Shown here: positions 4,796 to 26,991 of the stretch, one piece after another
Numbering within the stretch: position 1 is the first letter of the stretch
Layout: the number at the start of each line of letters is the position of its first letter
Assembly (NCBI GenBank): GCA_016699595.1
Contig: CP064982.1
Span: 643,118-707,117 of the forward strand
Length of the DNA: 64,000 nt
Direction of reading: 5' to 3'
DNA from: a bacterium
GTDB taxonomy: Bacteria > Patescibacteriota > Dojkabacteria > GCA-016699595
Program-made: the position numbers and the translations under genes
The notes under the pieces: model-generated
Told to the model about the DNA's origin: nothing
The model's database searches: none
Seen by the model: the letters and a program-made list of their open reading frames with translations, nothing else

Positions 4796-7126
4796 TTAAG
4801 AATGATTAATATTTGCTTGCCTCTTATACAAGGAAATTCCAAAACTAAATATTATTGAAGATAATATCAGATTTGGCAAACTACTTGCACCAGTTTCTCC
4901 TAGTATAGCACCTCCATCACCATTTCCTGTATCTGTCACTCCCAACACCGCAGGATTTGTTACAGTAACTGTATCTGAACTTGTATTATTAGCAGGATCT
5001 AGATCGCCACAAGCAAAGTAAACAGATGCTACATTCGTTGATGTTGTTTGAGTTTGATTTGTTATACTTACATTTATATTTATTTGAGATACTTCATTCA
5101 ACTGCATCGACGAATTTCTTGTGCAAGTAACATTTTGACCAACTGCTCCACAAACCCAACCGTTACCAGCATATGATAAAAATTGCATACCTAAAGGCAA
5201 TGTATCATTCACAATAATCGGTCCATTTGCTACATTGGGACCATAGTTACTCACTGAGAGTGTAAATGTTCCTGATTGGCCTTTCACGAAATTACCTATA
5301 TGAGATTTGATTAAGTTCAAGTTAGTATTCAGACAAACATTTCCAGCGCTAGATGTTGAATTTGTGTTTGCAGTTTGTGTACCTGCTACGTCCCCACTAC
5401 TGGTAGTAGTGACTGTTAGTGAAGAAGTATTTGCAACTTGAGTAGTATTTGTACTATTTACAGTATTAGTAGAAGCATTCGAAACTGAGGATGACATTGA
5501 TCCTGATTCACTAGTATTAGTTAAGTCGGAGGTATTTTGACTTGCTACACTTGATAACGAGTTGGTTGCTGAAGAACAGCTGCTTTGACACCTCACGCAA
5601 TTATTAACAATATTATTAATATTCTCAATATTTAGATTGTTATTATTGCCTATTATATTTATGTAAAAAACAGTAGTAGTCGCCATGTTTGAACAAGAAT
5701 TCTGACAAGTCATTTGATTACAAGTATTTTGCGAGCCAGCTATTTCTGATGAAATTGTACTAGTAGAATTTGCAGATATTGATGTACTTGTAGCTGTCCC
5801 TACTGAACTAAGTGTAGAATTACTTGTTGCAGAAGAATCTAAACTACTTACACTTGTACTGTTGATTTGAGTTGATGTATTACTAGATGTTGTAGAGCAA
5901 GAGCAATTACTAATTGTTGAACATTGAGCTTCATTCTCACAATTATTACAACAAGAATTTCCACAATAGTTATTCTCAAAGTGTTGATTTACTTCATTAT
6001 CATCACCAATAACAACTGCACCTTGAAAATTACCGCCGAAGTTGATATTTATTGGGTAAATCGAATTTATAGATGTTGAAGCGAATTGCGATGTTGAGGA
6101 GGTCATTGTAGAAACGGTAGAAACCGAACTAGTAGAAGATCCTGAACTATTCATACTACTTAGAGTCGAAGTCACAGTAACTGCACTTGATGCTGAGTCA
6201 GATGAAGTACTTGCTGTACAAACATTTGCAGTGACTAGTGTAGGGCCTATAAATGATATATTTTCATCAGTACCTTGTGTTGAAGATATACCTGCTACTT
6301 CGAACGGTAGTTCACCTTCTACATTTGTACTATTGACCGTATCATCGTCCCCAACAATTACAAGCATTTTTGATACTTTCGTTGAATCATCGGCTAGAAA
6401 TCCAATCCACCTTGTTGTTTTATTTCCACAACCTACATAATAGTTTTCTGAACTAGTCGAACCACACAGAGATTGATTTGAAGTACTTGTCGCTATGTTG
6501 GCATTTCCAATCTCATCATTGTCTTCATTATAATATTTAACAAATGCCAATGCTCCACCAAATACATCTGGATTTCGCGTTTCAAGATCTCCGAACCATG
6601 TACCAAATGCACTTACTGGACTAGAAAAACTAAACAAAAATCCAATTCTATTTCCATCTTCTGCATTTAGCAATTCATTTACATAACAACTATTATCCAC
6701 AAGGGATTGTGGTCTTGGAGAACTATCTTGAAGTATACTAGAATTTCCACATCCTGAAACTTTGCTATTCCAGTCACTGGTTCGATTTATCATATTCTGC
6801 GTCGAATCTATTTCAACAACCTGAACATGAACAGAAACTCCGTTTGCAACTACTAAATTTGTACCATCAAAAGAGTCATTTAGCAGTTTACGAGTGATCA
6901 GTGTTGAATTCTCTCCGTTGCATTGATACAATTCAGTTACATCTGAATACCACTCATTGTCTAAATCATCAACAGCACTGCGTATTGACTGTGTATTTGA
7001 ACCATTACCAACTTCATTGGATATATAGGATGTTACTGCAGCTTGAGATTGAGACGGAAACAAAATCGTGAATGCAGAAAAAAGCAAAAATGTATACGAT
7101 ATTGTTTGGACAGTTTTTTTGAACAT
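4796..7126 (-). CDS. large secreted Ser/Thr-rich, Cys-rich surface protein with a DUF11-type repeat domain and a C-terminal LPN-type anchor
   Basis: Signal peptide [29 protein letters not shown]. Long S/T-rich tracts. Cys clusters ([18 protein letters not shown]). DUF11-like segment [49 protein letters not shown]-terminus ...[25 protein letters not shown]. Confidence 0.7.
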
Positions 7127-7185
7127 AATAAAGTTTTCTACCTAACAAACTTGGGGAACTTGTTCGGCAGCTAATAAATAAATTG

Positions 7186-9417
7186 TTAATTTGATCTTTC
7201 AACTTTTTCTATAAATTGAATATCCTTTTTTAATGTATGTAAATTCATTTTTGTAACTATTGATAATACAAAGATCAATCCTACGACAAAAAATACAAAA
7301 CCCTTTTTCGAACTATCAGTAATTGCTGAGTTTGGTAATGTACTACTCGAAGTTATATTCACTGAACTAGCCAAACTTGTCAGTAATGAACTTCTTGTAT
7401 CACTCATGGATGATGTACTAACCTCACTTGAAACTGAACTAGACATTGAAGTGATATCGGTACAACTAGCAGAACAATTTACACTCAAACCACCATTGAC
7501 TCCATTGCATGACCAATTCGCTGTTCCATTATTAAATGTTGAAATATTACTTGATACCCCCTTTTGACATAAATCATATAAAGCTCTTGAACAAGAACCA
7601 ACTGAACCATTTGCTCCTCCGCAAAGACCATCGACCGGAGTACTAACTACATCGATATTCCACCCGTCACAATTATCGTAGTTATCATAGTTATTGACTG
7701 TATTGATAGGGTTGGAAACTACATCACAATTAATGTCTGTAGTATCAATTTCTCCACCTCCTGAGACACTAGCTACGTTTGAAATATTACCAATAAATCC
7801 TGTGTTTATGTTTGCAACAACTGTAATTATGGAATTTTGATTCACTCCTAATGCTTGACTTCTTGTACATGTAATATCATTACCTACATTACTACAATTC
7901 CAGTTAGTTCCACTAGCACTAACGAAAGTCAGTGTAGAAGGAAGATTTTCTGTAACTACTATTGGACTATTTGTTGCAACCTGACCTACATTCAGAACCT
8001 TAAGTTGGTAACTTACTTGTCCGCCTGTGGTGACATTTGTATCTGAAGTCTTTTGTATTATCAAATTTGGGTACTGAGCAACTGGAGTACTAGTAGTTGA
8101 GCTAGTTGCTGGTGTACTTGTTGGTGTTGAGCTTGAGACTGGGTTACTGCAACTAGCAGAACAATTTGCACTTGTTCCACCATTTGTTCCACTGCATGTC
8201 CATGAAACAGTTCCATTGGAGAACGTAGGATTTGCAGGATTTGCTGTCCCCTGTGCACATAGTGGTGTGAGAGTTCTGCTACATGATCCACTAGTTCCAT
8301 TTGCACTTCCACATACTCCATTGACTGGAGTTGGTGGTTTCAAACAACTAGCAGAACAATTTGCACTTGTTCCACCATTTGTTCCACTGCATGTCCATGA
8401 AACAGTTCCTCCATTTTGTGGGTATGAAATTGTTTCACTACCAGCATTACCTGGGTTACATAGATCTCCTGTAGGTATACTAGTGCCACATGTCCCTGTT
8501 CCTCCATTTGCACTTCCACATACTGCATTTATTGGAGTTTGCGTAATTGTCAGCGTCCAACCGTCACAATTATCTTGATTATTATCATTATTACTGTCAT
8601 TATCACCTTCTAGGTCTGCATCGCATGCCCAGTCAGTAGTATCACCATCTGTTGTATCGGTTGAATCTATAATTCTTGCATGGTCAACAATAGTATGGTT
8701 TACTGGTGCATTATCATTGATCTTCACATATACCTTTACAACTGTATCCCATACATTTATTGAAGGTACATATTGTTTTGTCGTTGTACATACTACTCTA
8801 TGATTTGGATTGTTGGGTGGATTTGGATCGTACTTTGTACATGTCCATCCAGTTCCTGCTACTAGTGATTGGTATGTATAGTATTCTCCTTGGACGGGTG
8901 CTTCTAGAACTGTAATTGTTCCATTTGTAGAAGCATTACCTATATTTGATATTTTCACTGTGTATTCAATTGTATCACCTGCTTTTGCTGAGCTTGCATT
9001 ACCTTGCTTTTGTATTATCAAGTTTGGCTTTGTAACAACTTGTGTACATGATTTGCCTGTTGTACACATAGCAGATACTGTCATTCCATCGGACGGTCTT
9101 GCTAGATTACAAGATACACCTGAGTTGGTAACGTATCCACTAGGTTTATATTCGGTAACATCAATTATTCCCCAGTCTAGTTGAACAGATCCACATCTAT
9201 CATATGGAGCTGTAGAGTTCATTGGATAATTTCTCCCGACTGTAATATTTTTTGTTTCTCCTGCTTGTAGCGTGATCTTTTGAACTGATTTATCGTTTTG
9301 GCCTGGATTTTGATCGCATGAGAAGTATTGATTATCTTGATCATCCCAGTGACTACCGTATTGTGACATACAAGAGTATGTCATTGATTCATTGTGGCAG
9401 TTTACCGTATCTAACAT
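7186..9417 (-). CDS. large Cys-rich repeat surface protein (two DUF11-like domains, three ~60-aa six-Cys repeats, S/T stalk, LPNSA + TM anchor); probably the 3' part of a frameshift-split gene
   Basis: Repeats of the form ...CGSANGGTGTCG..LCNPG..GTVSWTCSGTNGGTSANCSASC occur three times. DUF11-like blocks: GDTIEYTVKISNIGNAST.. and GGQVSYQLKVLNVGQVATNSPIVVTENLPSTLTFV.. C-terminus: SSSTLPNSAITDSSKKGFVFFVVGLIFVLSIVTK. No signal peptide at the annotated Met, and a TAG lies in frame just upstream. Confidence 0.65.
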   Translation of the reverse strand: MLDTVNCHNESMTYSCMSQYGSHWDDQDNQYFSCDQNPGQNDKSVQKITLQAGETKNITVGRNYPMNSTAPYDRCGSVQLDWGIIDVTEYKPSGYVTNSGVSCNLARPSDGMTVSAMCTTGKSCTQVVTKPNLIIQKQGNASSAKAGDTIEYTVKISNIGNASTNGTITVLEAPVQGEYYTYQSLVAGTGWTCTKYDPNPPNNPNHRVVCTTTKQYVPSINVWDTVVKVYVKINDNAPVNHTIVDHARIIDSTDTTDGDTTDWACDADLEGDNDSNNDNNQDNCDGWTLTITQTPINAVCGSANGGTGTCGTSIPTGDLCNPGNAGSETISYPQNGGTVSWTCSGTNGGTSANCSASCLKPPTPVNGVCGSANGTSGSCSRTLTPLCAQGTANPANPTFSNGTVSWTCSGTNGGTSANCSASCSNPVSSSTPTSTPATSSTTSTPVAQYPNLIIQKTSDTNVTTGGQVSYQLKVLNVGQVATNSPIVVTENLPSTLTFVSASGTNWNCSNVGNDITCTRSQALGVNQNSIITVVANINTGFIGNISNVASVSGGGEIDTTDINCDVVSNPINTVNNYDNYDNCDGWNIDVVSTPVDGLCGGANGSVGSCSRALYDLCQKGVSSNISTFNNGTANWSCNGVNGGLSVNCSASCTDITSMSSSVSSEVSTSSMSDTRSSLLTSLASSVNITSSSTLPNSAITDSSKKGFVFFVVGLIFVLSIVTKMNLHTLKKDIQFIEKVERSN
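8110..8540. repeat. two tandem ~195-bp (65-codon) near-identical repeat units inside the surface-protein gene, with a third diverged unit near 7440-7640
   Basis: A 64-nt identical stretch, aactagcagaacaatttgcacttgttccaccatttgttccactgcatgtccatgaaacagttcc, occurs at ~8151 and ~8347. The repeats also generate mirrored spurious ORFs on both strands (8061-8321, 8216-8578, 8340-8528). Confidence 0.75.
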
Positions 9418-9778
9418 CTATTGTATAGCCAGTTGTATTTCTCAAAGACAAAGTTTGAGTTAGGGAATCATTACTGTTGTTTCTTGTTCCACATCTATAT
9501 GCATCTTCTTTACTATATATCCCTCCAGATTGTGGGTCTCCGTAAAAACTACAGCCAGAATTACAATTATCTGATACTGATTCTATCTTCACTCCACATG
9601 TAATATTACTAGCAGGTGTAGGTATCTCTACTGCCCTCCCACTAAATGCTGAAGGTCGATCGGGAGCAATATTTTGCTTTCTTAAAATATTACTAATAAC
9701 AAGAAAACTTGCAACTAGAAGAATCAGAAAGATTATGAGTAAAACCAAAGATAATTTTCGTTTGTTTAAATGCAACAT
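9389..9778 (-). pseudogene. signal-peptide-bearing 5' fragment (129 aa), probably the N-terminal part of the 7186-9417 surface protein separated by a +1/-2 frame change
   Basis: MLHLNKRKLSLVLLIIFLILLVASFLVISN is a signal/anchor. It overlaps the downstream ORF by 29 nt in a different frame. The downstream ORF has no signal peptide although it has a C-terminal sorting-type anchor. Confidence 0.45.
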
Positions 9779-9848
9779 CTTGAGCAGTGTTTAATTTTAC
9801 GAGTAATTTTTGTAGTTTATATTTTTATTTTACAAATGTCAATAAAAA

Positions 9849-11627
9849 TCAATTCCCTGGCCACTTCATATTCCATTCTTTCATAATAGATACTTTTTCA
9901 AAATATGTTTTGTTTACTGGAAGCAGGTAAGCGAATGGATAATACAATATGTAACCAAGCAAAATAGCTAATAATGTCAGTATGATAAAAATTAGATTAA
10001 ACAAATCATTAAGTTCAAGTAGCTTCAATATACCAGATCTACTGAAAATAGATTTAGAACTTGGATCTGGATTTGGTTTCAAATTACTTTTAATATCATC
10101 CATTTCATTAAGATGTTCTTTGACGAAATCTTGCAACACATTGATCCTTGGCATTAGATAAAAATGTAAGATATACCCAAAGAGGATCATCCCAATAAGT
10201 AGTGCTGGCATATAATGATACATATACATAACTCTCTCTATAAGAGCGTAAGGTAACCAGTTGCCAAAGTATAATACAATAAGCCCTACCAAGACAGCAT
10301 CTTTAGATTCAAAATTTCTAAGGTTCAACAACTTCAGTAATAAAATGCTGACAGAAATAATGATTGATAATAGGGATATAAGCCAAATTACCGGATTTCC
10401 TACCAAGTAAACAAAAGCGTATTCATTTGATCCATCTGTTGACCAAAAATAACTTATCGTTCTACTCATGATAGGCCAAGTCATCCAACTAGACCCTATT
10501 TCATCTGGCTTTGTAAAATCTAGAGCAGGTACATTCTTGTTGTATCTAAGTTGAATAGAAGTATAGGCTTTCAGTTTGCACCAGTATGTCGCTGTATTCG
10601 TATTATTTCGTAAATCATTGACCCATTCAGGACAAAAATCGCTTACTTCTGCATTGTTTACATCTGGCAAAGCATTCCAATTTTTGATCATTGCAAAATG
10701 CATTGCAAAAATTGAGAGGTATATTAGGAGAGATATTCCCAAAATAGAACCAAGTTGGAGAATAGTTTTCGAAGTAACACTAAGAATAGTATTTGTCCAT
10801 GATTTCAACGATAATCTCACTTTATTTATATTTAACTTGCTACTGAACTGGTCTGCTTTTGAATTTATCAAATCAAGTAATTCGTCTCTTCTTAAAGTAT
10901 ATACTCTGTAGTTCTTTGCAAATAACAAGATAGCTAGAAAAGCAATTGTAGATATTGCAAACCATTTTGTAGATATTGCTAAACCCAAGGTGATACCACT
11001 AAGAAATGCCCAAAGCAATTGCATTTTCTTGTCTGCTGTATAGAAATATTTCAAACTGAAAAACATAGTTAACAGAATAAAAAATAATAAGATCTGCGAC
11101 AAAAGAGCATATCTTGACTCCACAATATAGCTAATCTCGAAAATACCAAGAAGTGATGCCATAAAGGGAACTATGTAACTTTTTGACCTACTTTTGTAAT
11201 TGATAATTTCATACACAATCAAAAATAGCATTGGTCCTATCATACTCCCAAATAATCTTGGAAATAATCTAAACCCTTCTGTATTCAATAAATTTTTATA
11301 ATTATCGAGCTTATTGCCTAATTGTGTAGAATCTAAAGATTCTTTGTTTGATAGGCCTCCTGGTGCTGTACCATCATATATTTTACTGCCTAAATAGAAA
11401 AGAAACTTACCCAAGGGGGGGTGTATATCAAAGTAATACTGGTTGAAGTAATAATTCTCAGTTTGAGGTATGAAGTATGCTTCATCAAATACAGTAGAAT
11501 CAGTTGGTTTCACAGTTACAGAAAACTTTCCAGAGTCATCAATATAAGGTTGAAATCGCGTCCATAAAGATAACAGAAGTATTAAACAGAAAATCAACCA
11601 TTTTGTTGGGTTAAGGAATTTTGACAT
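9849..11627 (-). CDS. GT39-family (PMT-like) protein O-mannosyltransferase, GT-C fold
   Basis: The first-loop motif FDEAYF..YYFDIHPPLGKFL matches the PMT family signature (FDEVHF..FFFDVHPPLGKLL). Polytopic membrane protein of 592 aa. Confidence 0.65.
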   Translation of the reverse strand: MSKFLNPTKWLIFCLILLLSLWTRFQPYIDDSGKFSVTVKPTDSTVFDEAYFIPQTENYYFNQYYFDIHPPLGKFLFYLGSKIYDGTAPGGLSNKESLDSTQLGNKLDNYKNLLNTEGFRLFPRLFGSMIGPMLFLIVYEIINYKSRSKSYIVPFMASLLGIFEISYIVESRYALLSQILLFFILLTMFFSLKYFYTADKKMQLLWAFLSGITLGLAISTKWFAISTIAFLAILLFAKNYRVYTLRRDELLDLINSKADQFSSKLNINKVRLSLKSWTNTILSVTSKTILQLGSILGISLLIYLSIFAMHFAMIKNWNALPDVNNAEVSDFCPEWVNDLRNNTNTATYWCKLKAYTSIQLRYNKNVPALDFTKPDEIGSSWMTWPIMSRTISYFWSTDGSNEYAFVYLVGNPVIWLISLLSIIISVSILLLKLLNLRNFESKDAVLVGLIVLYFGNWLPYALIERVMYMYHYMPALLIGMILFGYILHFYLMPRINVLQDFVKEHLNEMDDIKSNLKPNPDPSSKSIFSRSGILKLLELNDLFNLIFIILTLLAILLGYILYYPFAYLLPVNKTYFEKVSIMKEWNMKWPGN

Positions 11628-11630
11628 AAG

Positions 11631-13154
11631 TTAGTTTTTCGAATTAGGTTCTGACGAAAGCTTATCCAGAAGTTCTAACCATTGATTTTTGATGTTATAC
11701 TGAGAATACTTCTTAGCTTGTAGATATCCCAGCTCTATTTTCTCTTTAACTTCTTCCGAATCTCTATGTGTCAATATTTTCATTAGTTGCTCGCTTGCAT
11801 CTTTTATATCATAAGGGTCAGTATAAAAAGCTGCGTCACCTTGTGCCCATTTATGTACTGGAATTCCAGAAGACAAAACTGGACATCCACATGCCATAGC
11901 TTCTAGAGGAGGCATACCAAAACCTTCTTCAAAAGAAATAAAAGTGAATGCCTTAGCCATTGACATCAATATTCTGATTTCTGAGTTTGTTACATCAGAA
12001 AGCAATATGAATTCCCCCTTCAAAACATGGCTTCTCATGCTAGCAATAATATCTTGATACATCCAACCTAATCCACCTACATAAATATATTTTAGCTTCC
12101 TTTTGTTTTGGATAAAATACTTATCAGCAATCTCCGAATACATCTTAAGCATTCCCAAAATATTCTTCCTTGGCTCAATAGTTCCAACGGTTAAAATATA
12201 GTCGAATTCCAGGTTTTGCAATTGTTCTAAAATTTTATCTTTTTTGTCATCGTCAATGATTCCAAAAACATTTAAGCTGTATCGGCTTTCTATAATGTTT
12301 AAGAGCTTGGTTGCGTTCACTTCGTTAAAGTATATATCAGAAATAGCAGGAGCAATTGAAAAAGCATTTTCATTCCTTAAATTAGGATACATGCTTTGAA
12401 AATCCTTTATTACTGGCTCCGAATCAGCGACAAAAATGCTGCCAGTTTTTATTGATTGTCTTATGCTTTGATCTTGATACATTGATCTGTGAAATGCTCC
12501 TGCTACATATGTTGGACACAGTATCGGAATCAAATCATACACTCGTATGATTTGCTTAGTATTAGGGGATACTTTCAATCCTCTTTCAGTTGCAGTAATG
12601 AAGAAATCAAATTCATATGTATCAATGTTAGGTCGAGGTAACTTACTAGAAACTCTACTTCTTTGAATATCGGAAAAATCTGAATAGTTAGCTATGAATA
12701 TCTGAACATTACTCAGCTTGTCCCTGACATCTTTTGTAATAACCTTTGTCAAGAATTTGTCAATTATTAAATTATTGAAAACCTTGTCTATCTTGATTAG
12801 TTGAAAACTTCTTTTAAATAAAACATCATATACATGTGATAATAATTTGAGATTATTATAAAGTTTAGCTAATCTGCCGAGTCTATTTATAACCACACTG
12901 TCTGATCCAGTCAAAATTGCTACAGCCTGTGAATCTGCAACGATCTTTTGAGATTTAGATTTATGTTGTGAGTTTTTTAGTTTATAAATATCAAGTCTAC
13001 CCACAACATCGTACCAAAGTAGACTGATGTCGTACTTGTCATCTTGTATTAGCGCCTCCATGACCCGAAATAAATCCTGCTGAATCCCGCTTGCATAGTG
13101 TCCAGTATTGGCCATGTTGATAAGTACTTTTGTTTTTTTTGATGAATTTTCCAT
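11631..13154 (-). CDS. glycosyltransferase family 4 (GT-B, retaining)
   Basis: C-terminal motif FISFEEGFGMPPLEAMACGCPVLSSGIP is typical of GT4 (EX7E region). Confidence 0.7.
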   Translation of the reverse strand: MENSSKKTKVLINMANTGHYASGIQQDLFRVMEALIQDDKYDISLLWYDVVGRLDIYKLKNSQHKSKSQKIVADSQAVAILTGSDSVVINRLGRLAKLYNNLKLLSHVYDVLFKRSFQLIKIDKVFNNLIIDKFLTKVITKDVRDKLSNVQIFIANYSDFSDIQRSRVSSKLPRPNIDTYEFDFFITATERGLKVSPNTKQIIRVYDLIPILCPTYVAGAFHRSMYQDQSIRQSIKTGSIFVADSEPVIKDFQSMYPNLRNENAFSIAPAISDIYFNEVNATKLLNIIESRYSLNVFGIIDDDKKDKILEQLQNLEFDYILTVGTIEPRKNILGMLKMYSEIADKYFIQNKRKLKYIYVGGLGWMYQDIIASMRSHVLKGEFILLSDVTNSEIRILMSMAKAFTFISFEEGFGMPPLEAMACGCPVLSSGIPVHKWAQGDAAFYTDPYDIKDASEQLMKILTHRDSEEVKEKIELGYLQAKKYSQYNIKNQWLELLDKLSSEPNSKN

Positions 13155-13158
13155 GTTT

Positions 13159-14181: not shown

Positions 14182-14192
14182 AAATTTAAAAT

Positions 14193-15653: not shown

Positions 15654-16851
15654 TTCTTTTTGAAACTATAAAGAATACTTCTGCTATAAAAACAATTGTA
15701 GTGATTATCATAATTGGAAACCAGGCTTTAGTGTAATGCAAACATCCATATATAACATTAAACCCGGTGAACGCAGGAAATGAACTATAAAAAAGAAATG
15801 ATATTGCCACAACACCATTTAGGATAGAAAGGTATTTGTTCTTCATTATTACAAAGTAAACAATTGATATCAGATAAACAAGCATCCATGGATATTTAAT
15901 TATTAATCCTGGATAGTTACTATTGATATTTGATTCATTTACATAAGTTTTCGGAAATAGCTTGGTATTTACTCCTGAGTTTGTCCCAAGAAATATAGAC
16001 TGCAAGCTTGGTAATATATATTTGGGAGAATATCTAGATACCTCTTGATCGTTTCCACCAGTTTCATCTTTATGATTTATATATGGAGTATTATAAATCT
16101 CACCAAAGTAGGTCTTATTTAGGTACAAAATTGGTGTTATAAAGACAATTAGTGATAACGAAAAGAATAGAATCTTTCTCAGTAATATTTTGCAATCTTG
16201 ATACTCAGTAATAATTATGTAAAACAAAACTAAAATAAAGAACCATACTACATCTACATATCTAGCACTGAAGACCCATGCAGTGAGAATGGAAAATAGT
16301 ATAAGTAGTTTATATGTTAGATGCTCCTTGGTTGAGGTGATAATTAAAAGAATAGAGATCACAAGCAAATTTATCGTCGAGTTCCACGGAACTATCGTAT
16401 TTTCTAAGACTGGTGTAAGAAATATATAAATTGCAACACCCATAAGAGAAAATATATATTTATACTTACTTTCATTGAGCAATGTCTTAACGCTCAGGTA
16501 TACAGCTATTATAGATAAAGAGTATATCATTACACCACCACACAAAAAGGGGTCTATCTTAGCCAAACCCAGCCAGATGCCTATACTTCCAATTATTGGA
16601 TATCCTGGACCATACAGAAATCTTTCGTGATTAAGAGTAAACTCTGACATATCAATAGCCATTTTTAGATATTCTCCCTGATCAAACCAGCCAAAATAGC
16701 CATTACCCAGAAATTCATTGATTCCATGAGGAATTGTATCCAAACTATTGTAGTTCTTTATGAAAGTGAAAAATCCAATTACTAACAAAAAAAACACCAA
16801 GAAGTTTGAGAATAACTTTGATGAAATGGCGTGCTTTATATTATCTTGCAT
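15643..16851 (-). CDS. polytopic membrane protein, possible third GT-C-like transferase or glycan polymerase
   Basis: Multiple TM segments. First-loop motif GWFDQGEYLKMAIDM. Operonic with the flanking sugar genes. Confidence 0.35.
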   Translation of the reverse strand: MQDNIKHAISSKLFSNFLVFFLLVIGFFTFIKNYNSLDTIPHGINEFLGNGYFGWFDQGEYLKMAIDMSEFTLNHERFLYGPGYPIIGSIGIWLGLAKIDPFLCGGVMIYSLSIIAVYLSVKTLLNESKYKYIFSLMGVAIYIFLTPVLENTIVPWNSTINLLVISILLIITSTKEHLTYKLLILFSILTAWVFSARYVDVVWFFILVLFYIIITEYQDCKILLRKILFFSLSLIVFITPILYLNKTYFGEIYNTPYINHKDETGGNDQEVSRYSPKYILPSLQSIFLGTNSGVNTKLFPKTYVNESNINSNYPGLIIKYPWMLVYLISIVYFVIMKNKYLSILNGVVAISFLFYSSFPAFTGFNVIYGCLHYTKAWFPIMIITTIVFIAEVFFIVSKRNVK

Positions 16852-16874
16852 GCTGAATATAAATCAGAAAACGG

Positions 16875-17912
16875 TTAATACTTAATATAACATTTATCCC
16901 TATTTGTTGTTAAGCTATATACTACATTGGCAGTATTTACGGATTGAACGAACCCACGTTTAAGAATTTTTCTATCAATTTCAGAGAAATATTCCTCATT
17001 ATTTAGCCAATCGTGATTTTCTATATATAAATAGTCAAACTTTTCTAATAGTTGCACATTTTGATCAGTAGCAAATAAGTCTTTCTCTGCACCTTCAATG
17101 TCAATCTTTAAAATATTGACATCTTCAAAAGTATGTTCGTTTAGCAAATCTAAGAACTTTATATTTGAACATTCTTCAATTAATGAACCTTTGGCGGAGG
17201 CTCTTGACTGTACTCCACCCCAATTTGTATTAATTTCATTAGGGAAATATAGTTCACTTTTACCTTCTGTTTCTGAAAGACATTTTTGTAGTAAATTAGC
17301 TTTTTGAATTCCAAGAATTTTTATGTTTCTTTTAGCAAGTAAAATGTTCGAGGTTAATGGCTCAACACCGGTTAATGAATTAATTTCCAAACCTAACTTC
17401 TGTAGTTGATCCTGAAACCTAACAACACTAAGTCCTACATTTAGACCAACATCCACAAGTGAAATCGTCTTGTGTACCAATCTTTCTATATCAAAAATTT
17501 CATATGCTCCAGCCTCCATTTCGCCTAAAATATACATATCATCGAGTCTTAGTGACAATATACGATCATTATACTGAATCTTTACTGGCGATAAGCGATC
17601 AATTCTTCCATATTGATTCTCCCATAATAATTTAAATATCTTTTTGAATAAGACCCTTTCTTCATCTTGCTGATTTTGTATAGTTATTTTCAATGTCTCA
17701 TTCTTCGAATCTATTTCTTTTTTACTTCTGATATTCACAGCCTCTTCTGAGTTTAAGACGAATGCTAGAATTTCTTCAATTGATATTGAAGAAATTAGAT
17801 AATAATTTAGCTCTTCTTCTTTTGGCTCTCTTGCCAAGTATTTATTGAATATAAGGATTATAATTTGTTTGCGTAAGGCAATAATTTGTTTATGTGTTGG
17901 TTTATTTAACAT
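16875..17912 (-). CDS. FkbM-family SAM-dependent methyltransferase
   Basis: VDVGLNVGLSVV..GVEPL..NIKFLDLL..NILKIDIEGAEKDLF matches the FkbM domain pattern (DiGAn.G..fEP...LKiDvEGaE). Confidence 0.6.
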   Translation of the reverse strand: MLNKPTHKQIIALRKQIIILIFNKYLAREPKEEELNYYLISSISIEEILAFVLNSEEAVNIRSKKEIDSKNETLKITIQNQQDEERVLFKKIFKLLWENQYGRIDRLSPVKIQYNDRILSLRLDDMYILGEMEAGAYEIFDIERLVHKTISLVDVGLNVGLSVVRFQDQLQKLGLEINSLTGVEPLTSNILLAKRNIKILGIQKANLLQKCLSETEGKSELYFPNEINTNWGGVQSRASAKGSLIEECSNIKFLDLLNEHTFEDVNILKIDIEGAEKDLFATDQNVQLLEKFDYLYIENHDWLNNEEYFSEIDRKILKRGFVQSVNTANVVYSLTTNRDKCYIKY

Positions 17913-18095
17913 TAAATTAATTATTTCTTACGAAGAAAACTTGTAAGTTATAAAACACTTATTTCGCACATAAAAAGGCATGTATTTACTTTACAAAAAA
18001 CTCCATTTTAAAAGTGCCTTATTTTACGAATTTGATTATCAGGACTCTCAAATTCAAAACGGTATTCATTTTTGAAAGAAAACCTACCAGCTTTA

Positions 18096-19217
18096 TTATT
18101 TTTTAAAGGTAAATTTTTTGTGCCCTATAAAGTTCCAAAGTAAAACGACAACAGAACTAATTGGTGTTGTATAGAAAGAATTTCCTTTGAACACTTCATT
18201 CCACAAAAAACTGACGACAATTGCAATAATTATTCCACTACCAAAGACAAGCCAAAATCTGACGAAACTTCCAAATTTATTTGGTTTGTCCCTATATTCG
18301 AATGAGAATCTTTTGTTCAGAAAGTAATTATATAATCCAGAAATAAAAAATCCTAATGCAACTGGGATGAAATAGTTTGGAAGACCAAGTACAGATGACC
18401 CTATCCTAGACTTCAGAAATTCAGTAATAATCCAATTTAAAATTAATGCAGTGCCACCAACCAGCAAAAACTTAATAAATTGATTAAATGTGCTTTGAGG
18501 GTTTGCATATTTGATAATTTCCCAAATTGCTTTGGCTCCATCTTTCCAATTAATTTTCTTACCCTCCTCTTTCGACCTACCATAATATGAAATTCCAACT
18601 TCGTACAGTCGTAAATTCTTAATTCTGCTTAGTCTTGCTGTAACTTCAGGTTCAAATCCAAATCTTTTTGCTTCTAAATCTTTTGCAATTTCTCTGATCA
18701 AATCTGCTTTAAAGACTTTATAACAAGTTTCCATATCTGTCAGGTCAAATCCAGTCATAAGATTTGAAAATGTTGTCAAAAAACTATTTGCTAGTTTGTT
18801 TGCATAATAAAAAGTCCTATGTGGTTCCCCACCTACGAACCTTGAACCATAAACTACATCAGCATTTCCTCTTTGAATAGGGTAAAGAAGCTTAGAATAT
18901 TCATGTGGATCATACTCCATATCTGCATCTTGAATTATCACTACATCTCCAGTTGATGCCAAAATTCCTCTTTTCAATGCAGCGCCTTTCCCTTGATTTA
19001 TTTCTTGATTCAATATTGTCAGGTTGTACTTACTCTTGACCTCTTGAAGTTTTTCTAATGTCCCATCTTTACTTGCATCGTTTATAACGATAATTTCTTT
19101 TTGAATTGAACCCAAATCTACATCTTTCACCTCATCCAAAATTTGAGTTATCGTCTTAGCTTCATTATAGGCAGGGATTATGATTGATAGTTTTTTGATT
19201 TCTACTTTTTGATGCAT
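18096..19217 (-). CDS. GT2 polyprenol-phosphate sugar (mannose) synthase fused to a GtrA-like membrane domain
   Basis: LSIIIPAYNEAKTI..EIIVINDASKDGT..GKGAALKRGILASTGDVVIIQDADMEYDP is a Dpm1/Ppm1-like GT2 signature. The C-terminal four TMs (FIKFLLVGGTALILNWII..) resemble a GtrA domain. Confidence 0.8.
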   Translation of the reverse strand: MHQKVEIKKLSIIIPAYNEAKTITQILDEVKDVDLGSIQKEIIVINDASKDGTLEKLQEVKSKYNLTILNQEINQGKGAALKRGILASTGDVVIIQDADMEYDPHEYSKLLYPIQRGNADVVYGSRFVGGEPHRTFYYANKLANSFLTTFSNLMTGFDLTDMETCYKVFKADLIREIAKDLEAKRFGFEPEVTARLSRIKNLRLYEVGISYYGRSKEEGKKINWKDGAKAIWEIIKYANPQSTFNQFIKFLLVGGTALILNWIITEFLKSRIGSSVLGLPNYFIPVALGFFISGLYNYFLNKRFSFEYRDKPNKFGSFVRFWLVFGSGIIIAIVVSFLWNEVFKGNSFYTTPISSVVVLLWNFIGHKKFTFKK

Positions 19218-20056
19218 TATTTTTCTTCTAAGTTTAATTTCTTAATTAATTCCTTATAACTTTTTAAATTATTTACTGCAATCCAACTACCTGTGGGAAT
19301 TGCAATTGCAAAGAGTTTTCTTTCATTCGATAATATAGGAAACAAAATTTTCTCAAAGTCAGTTGGTTTATCATATGAAAATATTTTAAACCTTTCAAAG
19401 ACCTTGTTCGAAAATAAGGTTATACCGGTATGAATTGGGATTGGCAACATCGGATACATCACTACTTCTGTTACAAATCCCTTTTCTATCATCATACCTG
19501 TATACTGATGAGGTGTTTCCAAAACATTTACAACAGTTGATTCACAGCCTTTAGATTCTGCATATTCATGGGCTGAGATTATATCTAAAGGAAAGCTCCC
19601 AGAATAATTGAGAATGACATCATCTGGATTGTGGACTATAAACTTTTCCTCTTTTTTCAGATGCCCCTTTTCATAAGCATTACGAATTGCACCACCTTTT
19701 CCTACTGGTTTTTCGGGATCAAAACAATAGTCGATATTCACTCCATACTTGTCACCTGAACCAAGAAGATCAATTATACTTGATGCATGATGATAAACTA
19801 AAATTAGAAAATCTTTTAAACCAGCTTCAGCATACATTCTAATTGTCATTTCTATCATAGTATCACCATTTGGAAGTGTAAAGGCAGATTTATTTGTAGC
19901 TGTACTTCCTGGAACTTCTTTAAATCTTGAACTCTCTCCGCCAGCCATTAAAACTATTTTGTAATTTTTCTTTACTTTATCAAATTCTTCTTGAGTTAAT
20001 TTCGGAGTTTCAATAACATCACATAATTGAGTTTTTAGTTGATCTAGTGCTTGCAT
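19217..20056 (-). CDS. YcaO-domain protein (possibly degenerate or pseudo-YcaO)
   Basis: 279-aa ORF overlapping the start of the upstream GT2 gene; operonic in the glycosylation locus. The call corrects my first reading of IVLMAGGESSRFKEV..NKSAF as a nucleotidyltransferase signature. Confidence 0.3.
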   Translation of the reverse strand: MQALDQLKTQLCDVIETPKLTQEEFDKVKKNYKIVLMAGGESSRFKEVPGSTATNKSAFTLPNGDTMIEMTIRMYAEAGLKDFLILVYHHASSIIDLLGSGDKYGVNIDYCFDPEKPVGKGGAIRNAYEKGHLKKEEKFIVHNPDDVILNYSGSFPLDIISAHEYAESKGCESTVVNVLETPHQYTGMMIEKGFVTEVVMYPMLPIPIHTGITLFSNKVFERFKIFSYDKPTDFEKILFPILSNERKLFAIAIPTGSWIAVNNLKSYKELIKKLNLEEK

Positions 20057-20065
20057 TAGTTTGGT

Positions 20066-20851
20066 TTAATGTTTAATATTTAATATTTGCCTTAGGTAGG
20101 TCTTAGTGTCTTCGACACTATCTACTTCAACACAATCGATACCCATCAACTTGATTGGATAATCGTTGCCATCTGGCTCCAAATGATCTCCAAAGAACAA
20201 AACATCTTCATTTCTTAGATTCCTTGATTCAAGAAACATGCTCATTCCATAAGCCTTATCCATGCCTACTCTTGTGATATCAATCGATGTCAGCCCTCCA
20301 ATCTTTGCCTCCATGGTTTCCGGGAGAAGTGGATCAATGAAGTTTCTAAGTTCTTTTCTCTTTTTCAAATCTGGATCCCATAATTGTTTTTCATCAGCTG
20401 GTGCTTTTTGTCCTAAAGTCGACAATGTGATTTGTGAACCTCGATCCTCAATGATATTTCCCCATTCAGCATTAGTTTTTAAATTAAATTTTTCTACTGC
20501 AATTTTAACCGCTTTGATGCTTTCTTCTTTTTCCATTCCTGTCAATTCTTCAAAGAAAACCCTATTCCAATTTAATTTATCATCGAATTCAAACCTTTGT
20601 GTTCCAACAACTGGACAAATTATAAGATTCTTTAAACTATCACTTTTGGGAAATTGGTCAACTATATTCTTTTTAAATACCTCCGCATTGGTCCCTGAGA
20701 TTATAACAATTAAGAATTTGTCCAGTAATTTATCCAAAACCTGAACCATTTCTGAATCCATTGTGGTTTTTGAAATCACAAGCGTTCCATCAGCATCAAA
20801 CGCAAGCACTTTTTTGCTTTTTACTGAACTTTGAATATTAATCATTTTCAT
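20066..20851 (-). CDS. HAD-superfamily (IIB-like) hydrolase, possibly phosphomannomutase-type
   Basis: HAD motif I AFDADGTLV, motif III/IV region ..FFGDHLEPDGNDYP. The sugar-pathway context suggests a PMM-like role. Confidence 0.5.
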   Translation of the reverse strand: MKMINIQSSVKSKKVLAFDADGTLVISKTTMDSEMVQVLDKLLDKFLIVIISGTNAEVFKKNIVDQFPKSDSLKNLIICPVVGTQRFEFDDKLNWNRVFFEELTGMEKEESIKAVKIAVEKFNLKTNAEWGNIIEDRGSQITLSTLGQKAPADEKQLWDPDLKKRKELRNFIDPLLPETMEAKIGGLTSIDITRVGMDKAYGMSMFLESRNLRNEDVLFFGDHLEPDGNDYPIKLMGIDCVEVDSVEDTKTYLRQILNIKH

Positions 20852-21570
20852 TTATCACTTCTCCACACCCTCTCCCTCATAACCCTCCACGAACCGCCCA
20901 GATCTGCTCTAGCAACTTTCTTTACATTTACTTTTGATTCTTTATCATCAATCCACGTGACTGGAAGCTCAAATACCTTGTACCCAAACTTCTCTGCTAA
21001 CAATGTAAGCTCAAAATCAAAAAACCATGTATCATCCTTCGTCAATGGAACCAAATTTTTTGCAGTATCAACATTGATAGCCTTAAATCCACACTTGAAA
21101 TCATGGAATCTTGATCTCGTTATCAGCTTTATCAAAATTACATTTATGATTGAAAGGGTGCTCCTCTTTAGAGATCTATTTATTACCTTAGAGCCTTTCG
21201 TCAATCTACTGCCAATTACCATGTCATATCCTTCTGCAAATTTACCCATTGCTTCTGCAATATGTTTGATATCTGTAGACAAATCTAAATCCATCATCAA
21301 TGCATAGTCATAGTCATAGCGCTCCAACGCAGTTCTTAGTGCAATTCCTTTTCCCTTTATCTCGAGTCGTATGAATTCAAATTCTTTGTAATCATTTTTG
21401 AGTTCAATGCAAATGTTGTTTGAATTATCACTAGATTTGTTATCAACTACTATAATTTTCCATTCCATTTCACCTAAATTTTTCAATGCATACTCTCGAA
21501 CTTTCTCAACATGTTCTCGAAGTTGCCTTTCTTCATTGTATATAGGTATGATTATATTTAATTTTTTCAT
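20848..21570 (-). CDS. soluble GT2-family glycosyltransferase (dolichyl/polyprenyl-P sugar synthase-like)
   Basis: LNIIIPIYNEERQLREHV..IIVVDNKSSDNS..GKGIALRTAL..DLDLSTD. Confidence 0.75.
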   Translation of the reverse strand: MKKLNIIIPIYNEERQLREHVEKVREYALKNLGEMEWKIIVVDNKSSDNSNNICIELKNDYKEFEFIRLEIKGKGIALRTALERYDYDYALMMDLDLSTDIKHIAEAMGKFAEGYDMVIGSRLTKGSKVINRSLKRSTLSIINVILIKLITRSRFHDFKCGFKAINVDTAKNLVPLTKDDTWFFDFELTLLAEKFGYKVFELPVTWIDDKESKVNVKKVARADLGGSWRVMRERVWRSDK

Positions 21571-21637
21571 AATGTTCGGTCAATGCAATTTTTTTGTGTA
21601 CCTAGAAAATTCTATCACTCAAATGCCTTAATGTAAA

Positions 21638-23032
21638 CTATGCAAATCTCAGACCCAATACTTTATCAAACTCGTGAATTAAATATAACTTTTCTTTTGA
21701 GTCTAATTTAGAATTTATAGTTTTGATCAATATTGACAAACAAACTGGCATATTGAAACTATCTTCAACTCCAGATTTAAATGCATGATATAGATCTTGA
21801 GCTTCTTGAGATAAATTAATTATTCCTTCCTCATAGGAAGGTGCCGAACTATCGTGAGGCGAAAGGTTTTCAGCATTTATTTTTTTAACTTTTTCAACCA
21901 ATTTCAGTCTCACTTCGCGAGTTTTAGTAAGTTCATCTAAAGTAAAATTTTGCGATTTTCTAAAATTTGCAGTAAGATAGTAATATCTCAAGTCCATTGG
22001 ATCAAAACCCTTTTCAACCAAGTCTTGAAGTTTATAAAAATTCCCAAGCGACTTACTCATTTTCTTTCCATCAATTAAAATAAATTCATTATGAATCCAA
22101 TATTTAGCAAAAGGTTGCAAACTTGAACCTTCTGACTGGGCAATTTCATTTGTATGATGAACAGGGATATGCTCCACTCCACCTGTATGTATATCGATAG
22201 TTTCGCCAAGAAGTGATCTACTCATAGCAGAACATTCTATATGCCAACCTGGAAAACCAACTCCCCAAGGACTTTCCCACTTCATAATATGTTCAGAATT
22301 ATTTCCAATTATTTTTTGCCAAAGTCGAAAGTCAGCAGGATTTTTTTTGTTTTGATCTTCATTCACTTCATCTCTTACTGCAGTTTTCTTTTCAGCTAAG
22401 TTTTGTCCCGTTAAAATTCCATAATTTAATAGTTTTAGTTCAGAATTAGCTTTTACAAATTCTTCATATTTCGCAGTATCGAAATAAACTGCTTCAGCAG
22501 TATCATAAGTAAATCCTCTTTTTTCTAGCTCTTGAATCATCTCAATTTGTTCTTTGATGTAATTTGTAGCTCTTGGTCTATCTGTAGGAGCTAAGAAATT
22601 CATCTCTTCACAGTCTTTATCAACAGCATTGATATAAAATTCAGCTATATCCCAAACAGTTTTACCCTCTCGCTTCGCAGCTTTGTCCATACGATCTAAA
22701 CCATCCTCAGCGTCAGTTATTTCAGCTTCTTTATTTAGTTCCCTTTGAACTTCAGTCATAGTCATATGGCCAACATCTGTATAATTTCTAACCTGATGAA
22801 CTTCGTAACCCAGAAATTCTAAACTTCGACGGATAATATCGGCCATCAAAAAAGCTCGCATGTTTCCGATATGAGCAAAGTCGTAAACAGTTGGACCACA
22901 GTTATACATTGTAACTAATCTGTCTGATTCCTTCCCTTGAGAAGGTGTCCCGCTTAACGGGACGGAATTCTTTTCGTATAAGGCATGAAACTCTTCTTTT
23001 TGTTTTGTTAGTGTATTATAGATTTTTAGCAT
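21638..23032 (-). CDS. cysS: cysteine--tRNA ligase
   Basis: [28 protein letters not shown] and KMSKSLGNF (KMSKS motif) fit the class I CysRS layout. There is a small N-terminal insertion. Confidence 0.88.
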
Positions 23033-23769
23033 TATATTTCAAATTCCACAAACTCGAAAATTGGTTCGTGGTCAATAATTTTTATAAAATATTCTTTTGG
23101 ATCAATTATAAACTTTGCAAATATTTGAATTCTTTTCAAAATCGGAAACTGTGATTTGTATATATTTATTGCTCTTATTTTTCTAATTGTATCAAAAATC
23201 GAAAGTTGAATGACTAAGTTTGCATCAAACTTGTGTTTATAATTTTCCAATTTACAAAAGTTTTGTATTTCGAACTGTCCTCCAGTTATAAGTAATAGCT
23301 CGAAAGTAAATTTATCTAACTTTTGTAAGTTATATAGAATTTCAGAAACTATTATATGATCTGGATGTCCAGTAACTCCAGTATTGTCATAAGTGATGAC
23401 TGAATCTGGTTTAAAACTTTCGATTTGTTCAATTATTAAATCTTTAATTTTTGATTTTTCTGCGTTCAATCCTCCATCTTCAAAATCAAATAATCTATAA
23501 TTTTCTATTTTCAATATCTTCATAGCATTTTCAAATTCTATAGATCGAATTTGTTCTAAACTCTTTCCGTCTTGCTTCGCAATTTTCTTTCCCCAAGGAA
23601 TGGGTGTCCTTTTTATATAATTCTTGCCTGCACCACCTTTTGTCAAAATAACGATTTTGATTTCATTGTTTGATTTTTTTAGTTTGTGGATCATTCCTGT
23701 GACAAAGTATGTTTCATCATCAGGATGTGGAAGTATAATTAAGTATTTCATTGTATAAATATAAAACAA
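23032..23769 (-). CDS. PIG-L/LmbE-family N-acetylglucosaminyl deacetylase
   Basis: LIILPHPDDETYFVTGMI..KIVILTKGGAG and ..VTGHPDHIIVSE carry the HPDDE and HPDH motifs of the family. The true start is probably the Met of MKYLII. Confidence 0.75.
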   Translation of the reverse strand: MFYIYTMKYLIILPHPDDETYFVTGMIHKLKKSNNEIKIVILTKGGAGKNYIKRTPIPWGKKIAKQDGKSLEQIRSIEFENAMKILKIENYRLFDFEDGGLNAEKSKIKDLIIEQIESFKPDSVITYDNTGVTGHPDHIIVSEILYNLQKLDKFTFELLLITGGQFEIQNFCKLENYKHKFDANLVIQLSIFDTIRKIRAINIYKSQFPILKRIQIFAKFIIDPKEYFIKIIDHEPIFEFVEFEI

Positions 23770-26377: not shown

Positions 26378-26920
26378 CGTCGTATTTTAGCATATCTAGC
26401 AAATTTATATGTAACAAGATCCATTCTGGGAAATATCAGTATATTTATAAACAAACCTAATTAAGATTGTCAATATAAATCAACTTAAAAAGATATTTTT
26501 ATCCAAGCATTATTTTCATAATTCTTAGAATATTTTTTACATTTATAAACACTGCATTGAAATTTAAATTTGACAATGTTTGCATAATCCACAGTCATAA
26601 TGACTAAAAGTTTGCATTTTTATTTTGTAAAACAAAATAAAAAATTTTCTCATTTTTTACTTGCAATCATTTCAAAAATTTTGTAAAAATGTATTGGGAT
26701 CTTTTAAGTATAACTTAGTTACTAAATCTAGAAATTACTCAAGGCAATTTATTGCCACACAAGACTTGAAGGATTCAAGTTGCTTGTGTAATTTAAAAGA
26801 AAGATCAAAATTATTTTTGATAACTTTTATAGAATAATTATTTGGATTTTGTATAGACTAGTCGATAATGAAATGCGCAATCATTATTTATCGTAACTAA
26901 TGTGGTTTTAACTTAGGGAT

Positions 26921-26990
26921 CCCACACTGCCCAACTGTTACACGCCCCACCGAGACTGCCAGACTGCCTTTACTGCCAAACTGCCCAATT
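26921..26990. repeat. GC-rich island with five copies of ACTGCC at 8-10 bp spacing, abutting the DnaA box
   Basis: cccacACTGCCcaACTGttacacgccccaccgagACTGCCagACTGCCtttACTGCCaaACTGCCcaa. Local GC is >50% against a ~30% background. Confidence 0.6.
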
Positions 26991-26991
26991 T

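Follow-up and report, generated by a model that had tools for sequence, protein, structure and literature searches.

Does the block of genes at positions 4796-21570 of the 64-kb window analysed here (the whole stretch of DNA, taken from contig CP064982.1 of the Dojkabacteria assembly GCA_016699595.1) encode enzymes that glycosylate the surface proteins encoded at its downstream end? The original prediction, made from the sequence alone, had proposed that it does. Our analysis leans the same way: on a modest balance of probability, judged from sequence comparison, the block is a cell-surface glycosylation locus that uses polyprenol-phosphate-linked sugars, and its glycosyltransferase family 39 (GT39) arm would O-glycosylate the adjacent surface proteins. 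Family, fold and motif identities, gene order, Ser/Thr bias and a kept pairing between a GT39 subclade and surface proteins were established directly.

The GT39 enzyme and its neighbouring surface proteins

The enzyme and its two candidate substrates are encoded by the following genes, the second of which is divided over two open reading frames (ORFs):

9849-11627, minus strand: predicted GT39 polyprenol-phosphate-sugar:protein O-glycosyltransferase (Pmt-like), with PF02366 and PF16192
7186-9778, minus strand: frameshift-split surface protein gene (ORF 9389-9778 and ORF 7186-9417), with DUF11 and DUF7507
4796-7126, minus strand: secreted 776-aa surface protein with a cleavable signal peptide, Ser/Thr/Asn tracts, DUF11 (43 bits), a C-terminal transmembrane (TM) anchor and basic residues

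By its domains and motifs, the product of 9849-11627 is a genuine GT39 enzyme. Both GT39 domains scored above the Pfam gathering cut-offs (PMT PF02366, 94.5 bits against 22.7; PMT_4TMC PF16192, 95.1 bits against 32.4), and sequence matches in the PDB were solely to yeast Pmt1, Pmt2 and Pmt4 and to one further eukaryotic PMT. The signature on which the GT39 assignment had been based could be aligned with the yeast enzyme: 'FDEAYF' corresponds to 'VFDEVHF' of Pmt1, which places the catalytic DE motif at D48-E49, and R120 corresponds to R138 of Pmt1. These three residues were invariant across family alignments of 21 and 15 sequences. No MIR domain was found in the protein with Pfam; at 592 aa it is like bacterial GT39 enzymes, and as MIR domains belong to eukaryotic PMTs only, their absence does not weigh against membership of the bacterial type. 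The model for the actinobacterial Pmt equivalog (NF058602) gave 23.3 bits against a cut-off of 800, and the enzyme is not an orthologue of that group. The presence of a donor synthase in the locus and the kept adjacency to proteins with Ser/Thr tracts suggest that it would transfer mannose from polyprenol-phosphate-mannose to Ser/Thr residues of proteins.

No other protein of the window stands out for Ser/Thr content as strongly as the two encoded directly downstream. The product of 4796-7126 contains 29% Ser plus Thr with a peak of 62% over 60 aa, the highest in the window, and that of 7186-9778 contains 25% with a peak of 53%. All other gene-like long ORFs of the window remained at or below 32% in any 60 aa, except 29249-30283 and 57180-57899 (peak 38%). 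The Ser/Thr richness first reported was thus borne out, while the description of these proteins as giant was not, since they measure 776 aa and 743 aa (about 863 aa once the second is repaired) and are large only. The split product carries an N-terminal signal anchor, three Cys-rich repeats, two DUF11-type domains and Ser/Thr tracts, and ends in 'LPNSAITD' followed by a TM segment and basic residues. The C-terminal 'LPNSAITDSSKKGFVFFVVGLIFVLSIVTK' of a window protein is a recognisable variant of an LPxTG-like signal; that of the other protein, 'LGETGASS...KRQ', is more degenerate.

ORF 9389-9778 encodes the N-terminal signal anchor alone and overlaps ORF 7186-9417 by 29 nt (9389-9417) in a different frame, with a +1/-1 frameshift near an AAA run in this overlap. 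At the locus of the closest relative (L172), one ORF located 3' of the GT39 gene matches both pieces, its N-terminus being 52% identical to the first and its Cys-rich repeats 54% identical to the second. As the orthologue is one reading frame, the window copy carries a frameshift, which is either an assembly error or a real pseudogene; the assembly has the look of a long-read metagenome-assembled genome. The Cys-rich repeats at 7459-8547 are three copies of a module of about 65 aa, 'VNG.CGSANG...W.C.G.NGG.S.NCSASC', which is also present at 3498-4397 of L172 and belongs to no Pfam family. No tandem DNA repeats were found in the surface-protein genes. Beyond recA, a possible additional substrate is encoded at 2385-3728. 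This third surface protein combines a signal peptide and a Lamin Tail Domain (PF00932) with short stretches rich in Ser, and its C-terminus carries a TM anchor and basic residues.

For the comparison with other organisms, 80 genome loci and 80 metagenome loci with GT39 relatives were used, together with loci looked up for individual proteins. The GT39 relatives come overwhelmingly from assemblies of Patescibacteria (candidate phyla radiation, CPR) and Chloroflexota. In L172, the GT39 enzyme is 54-56% identical and the orthologous surface protein again follows the enzyme gene. Within the GT39 subclade nearest to the window enzyme (32-56% identity), counting lineages with enough flanking sequence, a surface-protein pairing was present in 7/7 further independent lineages, compared with 5/151 other GT39 loci (Fisher p ~2e-9); the five positive loci outside the subclade represent two Collierbacteria lineages. 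In the subclade lineages, one to four (often two to four) surface-protein ORFs adjoin the GT39 gene or lie within about 4 kb of it. Their products share an N-terminal signal anchor, many Cys residues, poly-Ser/Thr tracts and a C-terminal LPxTG[LI]FD motif followed by a hydrophobic segment and Arg/Lys, and some of them show sub-threshold DUF11-type matches just before the anchor, as in the window. A sortase is encoded 3 kb from the GT39 gene in one locus (L001), and a recurring 'C..CAQ[VI]D' module across the surface proteins is suggestive only. The synteny check proposed with the original prediction therefore came out favourably for the GT39 gene, in L172 and in all seven further subclade lineages. 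Also in L001 (and L009), a 488-aa polytopic membrane protein with no Pfam match and a Lys-rich tail is encoded directly upstream of the GT39 gene (L001 8521-9987).

These data bear on an improbable explanation, namely that the genes are neighbours by coincidence: GT39 and the enzymes associated with it would act on a non-protein acceptor (wall polysaccharide or lipid) or on proteins encoded at a distance, and the neighbours would be common, fast-evolving genes. A generic test on all 80 genome loci gave a weak enrichment of Ser/Thr-rich ORFs (8/222 within 2.5 kb against 6/314 farther away), and homology between the surface proteins of one lineage and another could not be demonstrated, which would fit such an explanation. 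For the pairing signal to emerge, the loci had to be divided by subclade and scored by the C-terminal anchor motif. However, its presence in every subclade lineage and in the closest relative, and its near absence elsewhere, argue against chance adjacency. In addition, every characterised GT39 enzyme that is known to us (Mycobacterium, Streptomyces, Corynebacterium, yeast; C. bescii in PMC6151902) acts on Ser/Thr of proteins.

Sugar activation and lipid-linked donors

At the upstream end of the block, four genes could supply the donor for the GT39 enzyme:

20848-21570, minus strand: soluble 240-aa GT2, a second polyprenol-phosphate-sugar-synthase-like enzyme (PF00535, E 4e-23)
20066-20851, minus strand: HAD-IIB hexose-phosphate mutase of the PMM / alpha-PGM type (PF03332 PMM and TIGR01484)
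19217-20056, minus strand: sugar-1-phosphate nucleotidylyltransferase (NTP_transferase PF00483, E 1e-13)
18096-19217, minus strand: polyprenol-phosphate-hexose synthase of DPMS type III architecture (PF00535 GT2 and PF04138 GtrA_DPMS_TM)

The best solved relative of the mutase was the alpha-phosphoglucomutase of L. lactis (4bnd, E 1e-37), followed by eukaryotic PMMs at about 1e-12. The product of 19217-20056 had been taken for a YcaO-domain protein; no YcaO signal was found in it, and its assignment as a nucleotidylyltransferase, with mannose-1-phosphate guanylyltransferases as best, weak PDB relatives (E 4e-7), makes the pathway more complete, not less.

The prediction of a GtrA-fused polyprenyl-phosphate sugar synthase was confirmed. 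The 373-aa protein is colinear over residues 8-351 with the Dol-P-Man synthase of P. furiosus (5mlz, E 1e-26) and, like this enzyme, combines a GT2 domain and a DAD motif with a C-terminal GtrA-like membrane domain of four TM helices. It differs from it in sequence (about 25-30% identity) and, given the bacterial host, presumably in the lipid carrier, which would be undecaprenyl or another polyprenyl phosphate. The GT2 relatives in NCBIfam make polyprenol-phosphate-linked Glc, GlcNAc, GalNAc or Ara4FN; mannose is our best guess for the window synthase, based on the presence of a GDP-mannose 4,6-dehydratase (Gmd) and the neighbouring activation genes. The small GT2 has AglJ, PgfS, ArnC and P. 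furiosus DPMS as its top NCBIfam and PDB matches. Being also closest to polyprenol-phosphate-sugar synthases, it indicates that the locus probably makes two lipid-linked monosaccharides.

A comparison with the Ppm1-Pmt system of Actinobacteria (M. tuberculosis Rv2051c/Rv1002c, Streptomyces, C. glutamicum) had been drawn in the original prediction. It applies to function only: there a polyprenol-phosphate-mannose synthase feeds a GT39 enzyme, without a MIR domain and with the DE motif kept, that O-mannosylates Ser/Thr-rich parts of proteins exported by Sec, and the enzymes of the window would work likewise. The architecture of the synthase does not follow the comparison, since here it is one polypeptide with its own GtrA-like 4-TM domain, as in archaeal DPMS type III. 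The GT2 domain of Ppm1-type synthases lacks a TM domain of its own and is anchored by an Lnt-like membrane domain, separate or fused; no CN_hydrolase/Lnt domain was found in the locus, and the small GT2, a soluble protein, likewise has no such membrane partner there. Further differences are the low score of the GT39 enzyme with the actinobacterial model, the clustering of enzyme, donor pathway and candidate substrates, and the nature of these substrates, which are LPxTG-like anchored, Cys-rich proteins with Ser/Thr/Asn tracts, in contrast to the Pro/Ala/Thr tracts of the actinobacterial ones. A second precedent is C. bescii, in which deletion of the GT39 gene Cbes_1864, located near the substrate gene celA, abolishes glycosylation of secreted cellulases (PMC6151902). 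There too, a non-actinobacterial GT39 gene lies near the gene of a secreted substrate, as it does here for a candidate substrate. However, the substrates of C. bescii are free multidomain cellulases with Thr/Pro linkers, and its locus has no co-clustered donor pathway, additional membrane glycosyltransferases of the GT-C fold, Gmd or methyltransferase.

In the favoured reading, the HAD-type mutase and the nucleotidylyltransferase would produce an NDP-hexose in the cytoplasm, most likely GDP-mannose because Gmd in the same block requires that substrate. The DPMS-type GT2 would move the hexose onto polyprenol phosphate, and the lipid-linked sugar would be flipped outward, after which the GT39 enzyme would transfer it to Ser/Thr in the unfolded Ser/Thr tracts of the two downstream-encoded proteins as they emerge from the Sec translocon. 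The glycosylated proteins would stay attached to the cell through their C-terminal LPxTG-like signal and TM anchor. The small GT2 probably supplies a second lipid-linked sugar. Two further membrane proteins of the block, mem486 and mem402, would work outside the membrane, where they may extend the O-linked glycan or build a separate envelope glycoconjugate from the same donor pool.

The additional glycosyltransferases and their possible products

Between the donor genes and the GT39 gene lie five more genes:

16875-17912, minus strand: FkbM-family SAM methyltransferase (PF05050 40.3 bits and TIGR01444 46.3 bits, both above cut-off)
15643-16851, minus strand: mem402, a 402-aa polytopic membrane protein, probable GT-C enzyme of a family without Pfam coverage, with no Pfam match
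14193-15653, minus strand: mem486, a 486-aa polytopic membrane protein, GT-C-fold glycosyltransferase of a family without Pfam coverage
13159-14181, minus strand: GDP-mannose 4,6-dehydratase, Gmd (PF16363 401 bits; TIGR01472 417.3 against a cut-off of 415)
11631-13154, minus strand: cytoplasmic GT4 glycosyltransferase of the GT-B fold (PF00534 72 bits, residues 312-467)

According to the ORF calls, every gene from 2385 to 26377 is located on the minus strand, including the whole block 4796-21570, in agreement with the coordinates and shared orientation given originally. Ten sugar-metabolism or glycosyltransferase genes follow each other with intergenic gaps of -11 to +183 nt, a non-chance arrangement. 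From FkbM through mem402, mem486, Gmd and GT4 to GT39, the gaps are only -11 to +23 nt, which argues for co-expression and resembles a single transcription unit ending at the candidate substrate genes. The proposed profile searches for the PMT, GT2, GtrA, Gmd and FkbM families were performed with Pfam and NCBIfam and confirmed each of these calls; the same held for the GT4, the HAD/PMM-like protein and the soluble GT2.

The original prediction also counted three GT-C-like proteins, a number that stands at three levels of evidence: family for the GT39 enzyme, fold for mem486 and profile for mem402. mem486 is polytopic and has a GT-C fold, its first extracytoplasmic loop bearing a conserved acidic residue; its motif 'SDQGRD' is of the same kind as 'DQG' in mem402. 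For mem402, a word-indexed search gave two homologues and an exhaustive search 850 cluster representatives. D57, in the 'DQG' just after TM1, was the sole invariant residue in an alignment of 60 members, among which ten had a PMT_2 match, one a GT87 match and ten F5/8 type C sugar-binding domains. Comparison of the two families by hhalign gave a probability of 96% (E 4e-9, 302 columns), against just 35% for the mem402-family profile with GT39. The AF2 model of mem402, built on a 3-sequence alignment, was unusable (pLDDT 41). From these profile data, mem402 is probably a GT-C glycosyltransferase and a remote homologue of mem486.

In cyanobacteria, mem486 homologues adjoin PMT_2 and GT2 genes, an arrangement that hints at a lipid-linked glycosylation module not yet characterised. 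The homologues of Anabaena PCC 7108 (L007 6383-9578) and Pleurocapsa PCC 7327 (L008 8001-14332) are annotated as hypothetical. In the locus of the closest mem402 homologue (P0080, locus L090), a 233-aa GT2, 27% identical to the small GT2 of the window, overlaps the mem402 homologue. The small GT2 and mem402, here and in L090, resemble the pair found in three-component modules (GtrA/GtrB/GtrX, CsbB/YfhO, GacI/GacL, ArnC/ArnT and mycobacterial PpgS/Rv3632/Rv3779), in which a GtrA-like membrane element accompanies a small GT2 that charges polyprenol phosphate and a GT-C enzyme that transfers the sugar outside the membrane. Those modules modify glycans or lipids (O-antigen, teichoic acids, lipid A, arabinogalactan), and mem486 and mem402 match none of the Pfam families of their GT-C enzymes.

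Gmd is closely related to the structure 2z1m (E 1e-115). Among the ORFs scanned in the 64-kb window, it is the sole member of the epimerase/dehydratase family, and no 4-reductase, Fcl, Rmd or aminotransferase that would process its product was found; the enzyme converting this product may be encoded elsewhere in the genome. Of the suggestion that the proteins possibly carry a 6-deoxyhexose and an O-methylated sugar, the enzymes Gmd and FkbM are present, but the finishing 4-reductase is absent from the 64 kb, and FkbM acts in the cytoplasm. The GT4 has a long N-terminal half without an assigned family, and its NCBIfam matches (MSMEG_0565, BshA, IagA/BgsA and a diacylglycerol glucosyltransferase) were all sub-threshold. 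What GT4, Gmd, FkbM and the extra GT-C proteins do is inferred, as are the identity of the sugar and the acceptor proteins.

Several findings weigh against the favoured reading. GT4 and FkbM are cytoplasmic; they cannot act on an exported glycoprotein, and a stepwise extracytoplasmic O-glycan offers them no evident role. Gmd, GT4, FkbM, mem486, mem402 and DUF11 gave no BLASTP match at E 1e-5 in the 80 genome loci, a search that left out the 80 metagenome loci, and synteny of the block beyond the GT39 gene was accordingly not borne out. A GT2 synthase-like neighbour was found in 15/80 genome loci when the block proteins were searched by BLASTP; next to the enzyme gene, neither of the two GT2 synthases had a detectable homologue in any further species-level lineage. 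Just one other assembly has any of the Gmd, GT4, FkbM or extra GT-C genes: in L173, a 99% identical strain, FkbM, mem402 and mem486 are retained with their order unchanged; apart from this strain, the large block was not seen outside this organism. The closest mem402 homologue lies in a Wzx/GT4/GT2/RmlC polysaccharide cluster. With phmmer, the window surface proteins matched nothing among the neighbours in relatives other than L172, and unfiltered BLAST matches were compositional; judged by their sequences, these neighbours share architecture and composition, not demonstrable homology. The window proteins fit the LPxTG-like consensus only in degenerate form (LPNSA..., LGETG...), no sortase was found in the 64-kb window by tblastn with the sortase of a relative, and one candidate substrate gene is frameshifted in this assembly. 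As the nearest solved relative of the mutase is a phosphoglucomutase and the nucleotidylyltransferase matches mannose enzymes weakly, the hexose could be glucose.

Part of the proposed O-glycosylation logic thus stands, namely a GT39 enzyme, a DPMS-type synthase and activation genes directly before the genes for Ser/Thr-rich proteins, and part of it is not supported (the YcaO protein, synteny of the whole block, completion of a 6-deoxyhexose). On the concern raised at the outset that the GT-C proteins act on glycans, the evidence is divided between the synteny of GT39 with Ser/Thr-rich proteins, which speaks for protein acceptors, and the polysaccharide cluster around the closest mem402 homologue, which does not. 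Extension of a protein-linked glycan by the extra GT-C enzymes and the building, by these enzymes, of a separate glycolipid or polymer from the same donor pool are close rivals.

It is possible that the locus is composite, the GT39 enzyme acting on proteins and GT4, Gmd, FkbM, the small GT2 and the two extra GT-C enzymes building a separate envelope glycolipid or glycopolymer, which may contain a methylated 6-deoxyhexose. Such an arrangement would follow the logic of corynebacterial and mycobacterial lipomannan synthesis, in which a lipid primed by a cytoplasmic GT4 is flipped and then lengthened by GT-C enzymes that draw on polyprenol-phosphate sugars; in the lipomannan/LAM pathway of Corynebacterineae (GT4 primers PimA/MgtA, Ppm1, and the GT-C enzymes PimE/MptA-C), a cytoplasmic GT4, a polyprenol-phosphate-mannose synthase and several GT-C enzymes share a donor pool that also feeds Pmt, a set of components like the one found here. 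The cytoplasmic GT4 and FkbM would gain a role, and the sub-threshold GT4 matches include glycolipid-anchor glycosyltransferases (IagA/BgsA and diacylglycerol glucosyltransferase). The same model would accommodate the gene neighbourhoods of the mem402 and mem486 homologues, the absence of BLASTP matches to these genes in the 80 genome loci, and a Wzm-like ABC-2 permease gene 4 kb upstream of the block. However, the tight packing from FkbM to GT39 speaks for one unit, L172 too has a GT4-like gene 3 nt before its GT39 gene, and the scanned ORFs of the window include neither a Wzt ATPase nor a Wzx, Wzy or ligase.

The least probable of the explanations is synthesis of an S-layer-glycan type, in which a lipid-carried oligo- or polysaccharide with a 6-deoxyhexose and a methyl cap would be completed in the cytoplasm, exported through an ABC transporter and then passed en bloc to surface proteins, with an orphan GT-C or the GT39 enzyme as O-oligosaccharyltransferase. 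Gmd, a methyltransferase, GT4, GT2 and a Wzm-like permease are indeed encoded near surface-protein genes, and the slg clusters of Firmicutes (Geobacillus, Aneurinibacillus) resemble this set in gene content. Nevertheless, the window ORFs scanned contained no Wzy_C O-oligosaccharyltransferase, no initiating phosphoglycosyltransferase and no Wzt beside the permease, whose Wzm-like match is far under the cut-off (55 against 380 bits) and whose gene is separated from the block by IF-2, PIG-L and cysS. Both GT2 enzymes are moreover of the polyprenol-monophosphate-sugar synthase type, which points to stepwise transfer of single sugars.

A wider form of the favoured reading, which we consider rather doubtful, is that a distinct GT39 subclade of ultrasmall bacteria of the CPR/Patescibacteria type is tied to sortase-type, Cys-rich surface proteins with poly-Ser/Thr tracts, and that the system is expanded here, several GT-C enzymes acting on the same glycoproteins. 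The expansion would consist of two GT-C families without Pfam coverage (one common to cyanobacteria, one with about 850 sequence clusters), the second lipid-sugar synthase, Gmd and the methyltransferase. The GT-C enzymes would extend the O-glycan outside the cell or, like TMTC/TMEM260 in animals, modify different domains, for example the DUF11 Ig-like modules. TfpW of Pseudomonas is a GT-C enzyme outside GT39 that glycosylates a particular protein domain. In eukaryotes, TMTC1-4 and TMEM260 are reported as non-GT39 GT-C O-mannosyltransferases that glycosylate particular protein domains (PMC10214176). These enzymes are a precedent for several GT-C enzymes with different protein targets, and mem486 and mem402 are likened to them by function class, not by sequence. 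If this wider reading is true, O-glycosylated adhesins would be a major, so far undescribed surface feature for host contact.

Under the favoured reading, sugar activation, lipid-linked donor synthesis, GT39 enzyme and candidate substrates are brought together in one compact block of a genome of about 0.76 Mb, and other uncultured lineages related to this one show the same pairing of enzyme and candidate substrate. Experimental proof of protein O-mannosylation by GT39 enzymes comes from Actinobacteria and one Firmicute. Many bacteria such as the one studied here live attached to other cells, so that host contact, protease resistance or phage evasion are obvious candidate functions for surface proteins that are glycosylated and anchored. 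The components and the core Ppm/Pmt logic are already known. Literature searches gave no earlier description of GT39 protein glycosylation in CPR/Patescibacteria, and as far as the searched literature goes, three points are new: the kept pairing of a GT39 subclade with LPxTG-like, Cys-rich proteins with Ser/Thr tracts in small-genome lineages that are uncultured; the gathering of enzyme, donor pathway and candidate substrates in one compact cluster; and the assignment of two widespread membrane-protein families, neither covered by Pfam, to the GT-C glycosyltransferases (mem486 by fold, mem402 probably).

Genomic setting of the block

Two more genes fall within the range first given for the locus, and nothing ties either of them to the glycosylation pathway:

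23032-23769, minus strand: PIG-L family deacetylase, overlapping the start of cysS by 1 base
21638-23032, minus strand: cysS

PIG-L, cysS and GT4 were also considered as parts of a mycothiol- or bacillithiol-like pathway, which was rejected: cysS passed the CysRS model (349.6 against a cut-off of 340) and reached just 167 against 485 with MshC. The adjoining IF-2 (23865-25433) has just 522 aa and covers positions 80-580 of the 587-position bacterial model TIGR00487. The ABC-2 permease gene at 25559-26377, with the Wzm/RfbD polysaccharide exporter permease as its best NCBIfam match, has no adjoining ATPase gene; the closest ABC ATPase is encoded at 32664-33338. A second GT4 glycosyltransferase (42868-44187) is located among unrelated genes, 21 kb from the block.

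The window has a G+C content of about 32%. Promoter and terminator scans performed no better than on shuffled sequence, and the Rfam scan of the window gave two tRNAs and nothing else. At 38271-39851, an unusual 526-aa fusion protein is encoded, consisting of an MtrA-like domain (PF04208), a thymidylate-synthase-like domain and a PterinBD-DUF4346 domain. Beside it (37248-38255) lies the gene of a dCMP-deaminase-family protein with a 200-aa N-terminal extension without an assigned family. The dnaN gene (55247-56380) is not beside dnaA, being located 27 kb off on the opposite strand. dnaA itself (27084-28445) is on the plus strand, and together with the switch of gene strand in 26378-27083 it indicates a likely replication origin at about 26.4-27.1 kb, so that the block adjoins the probable origin.

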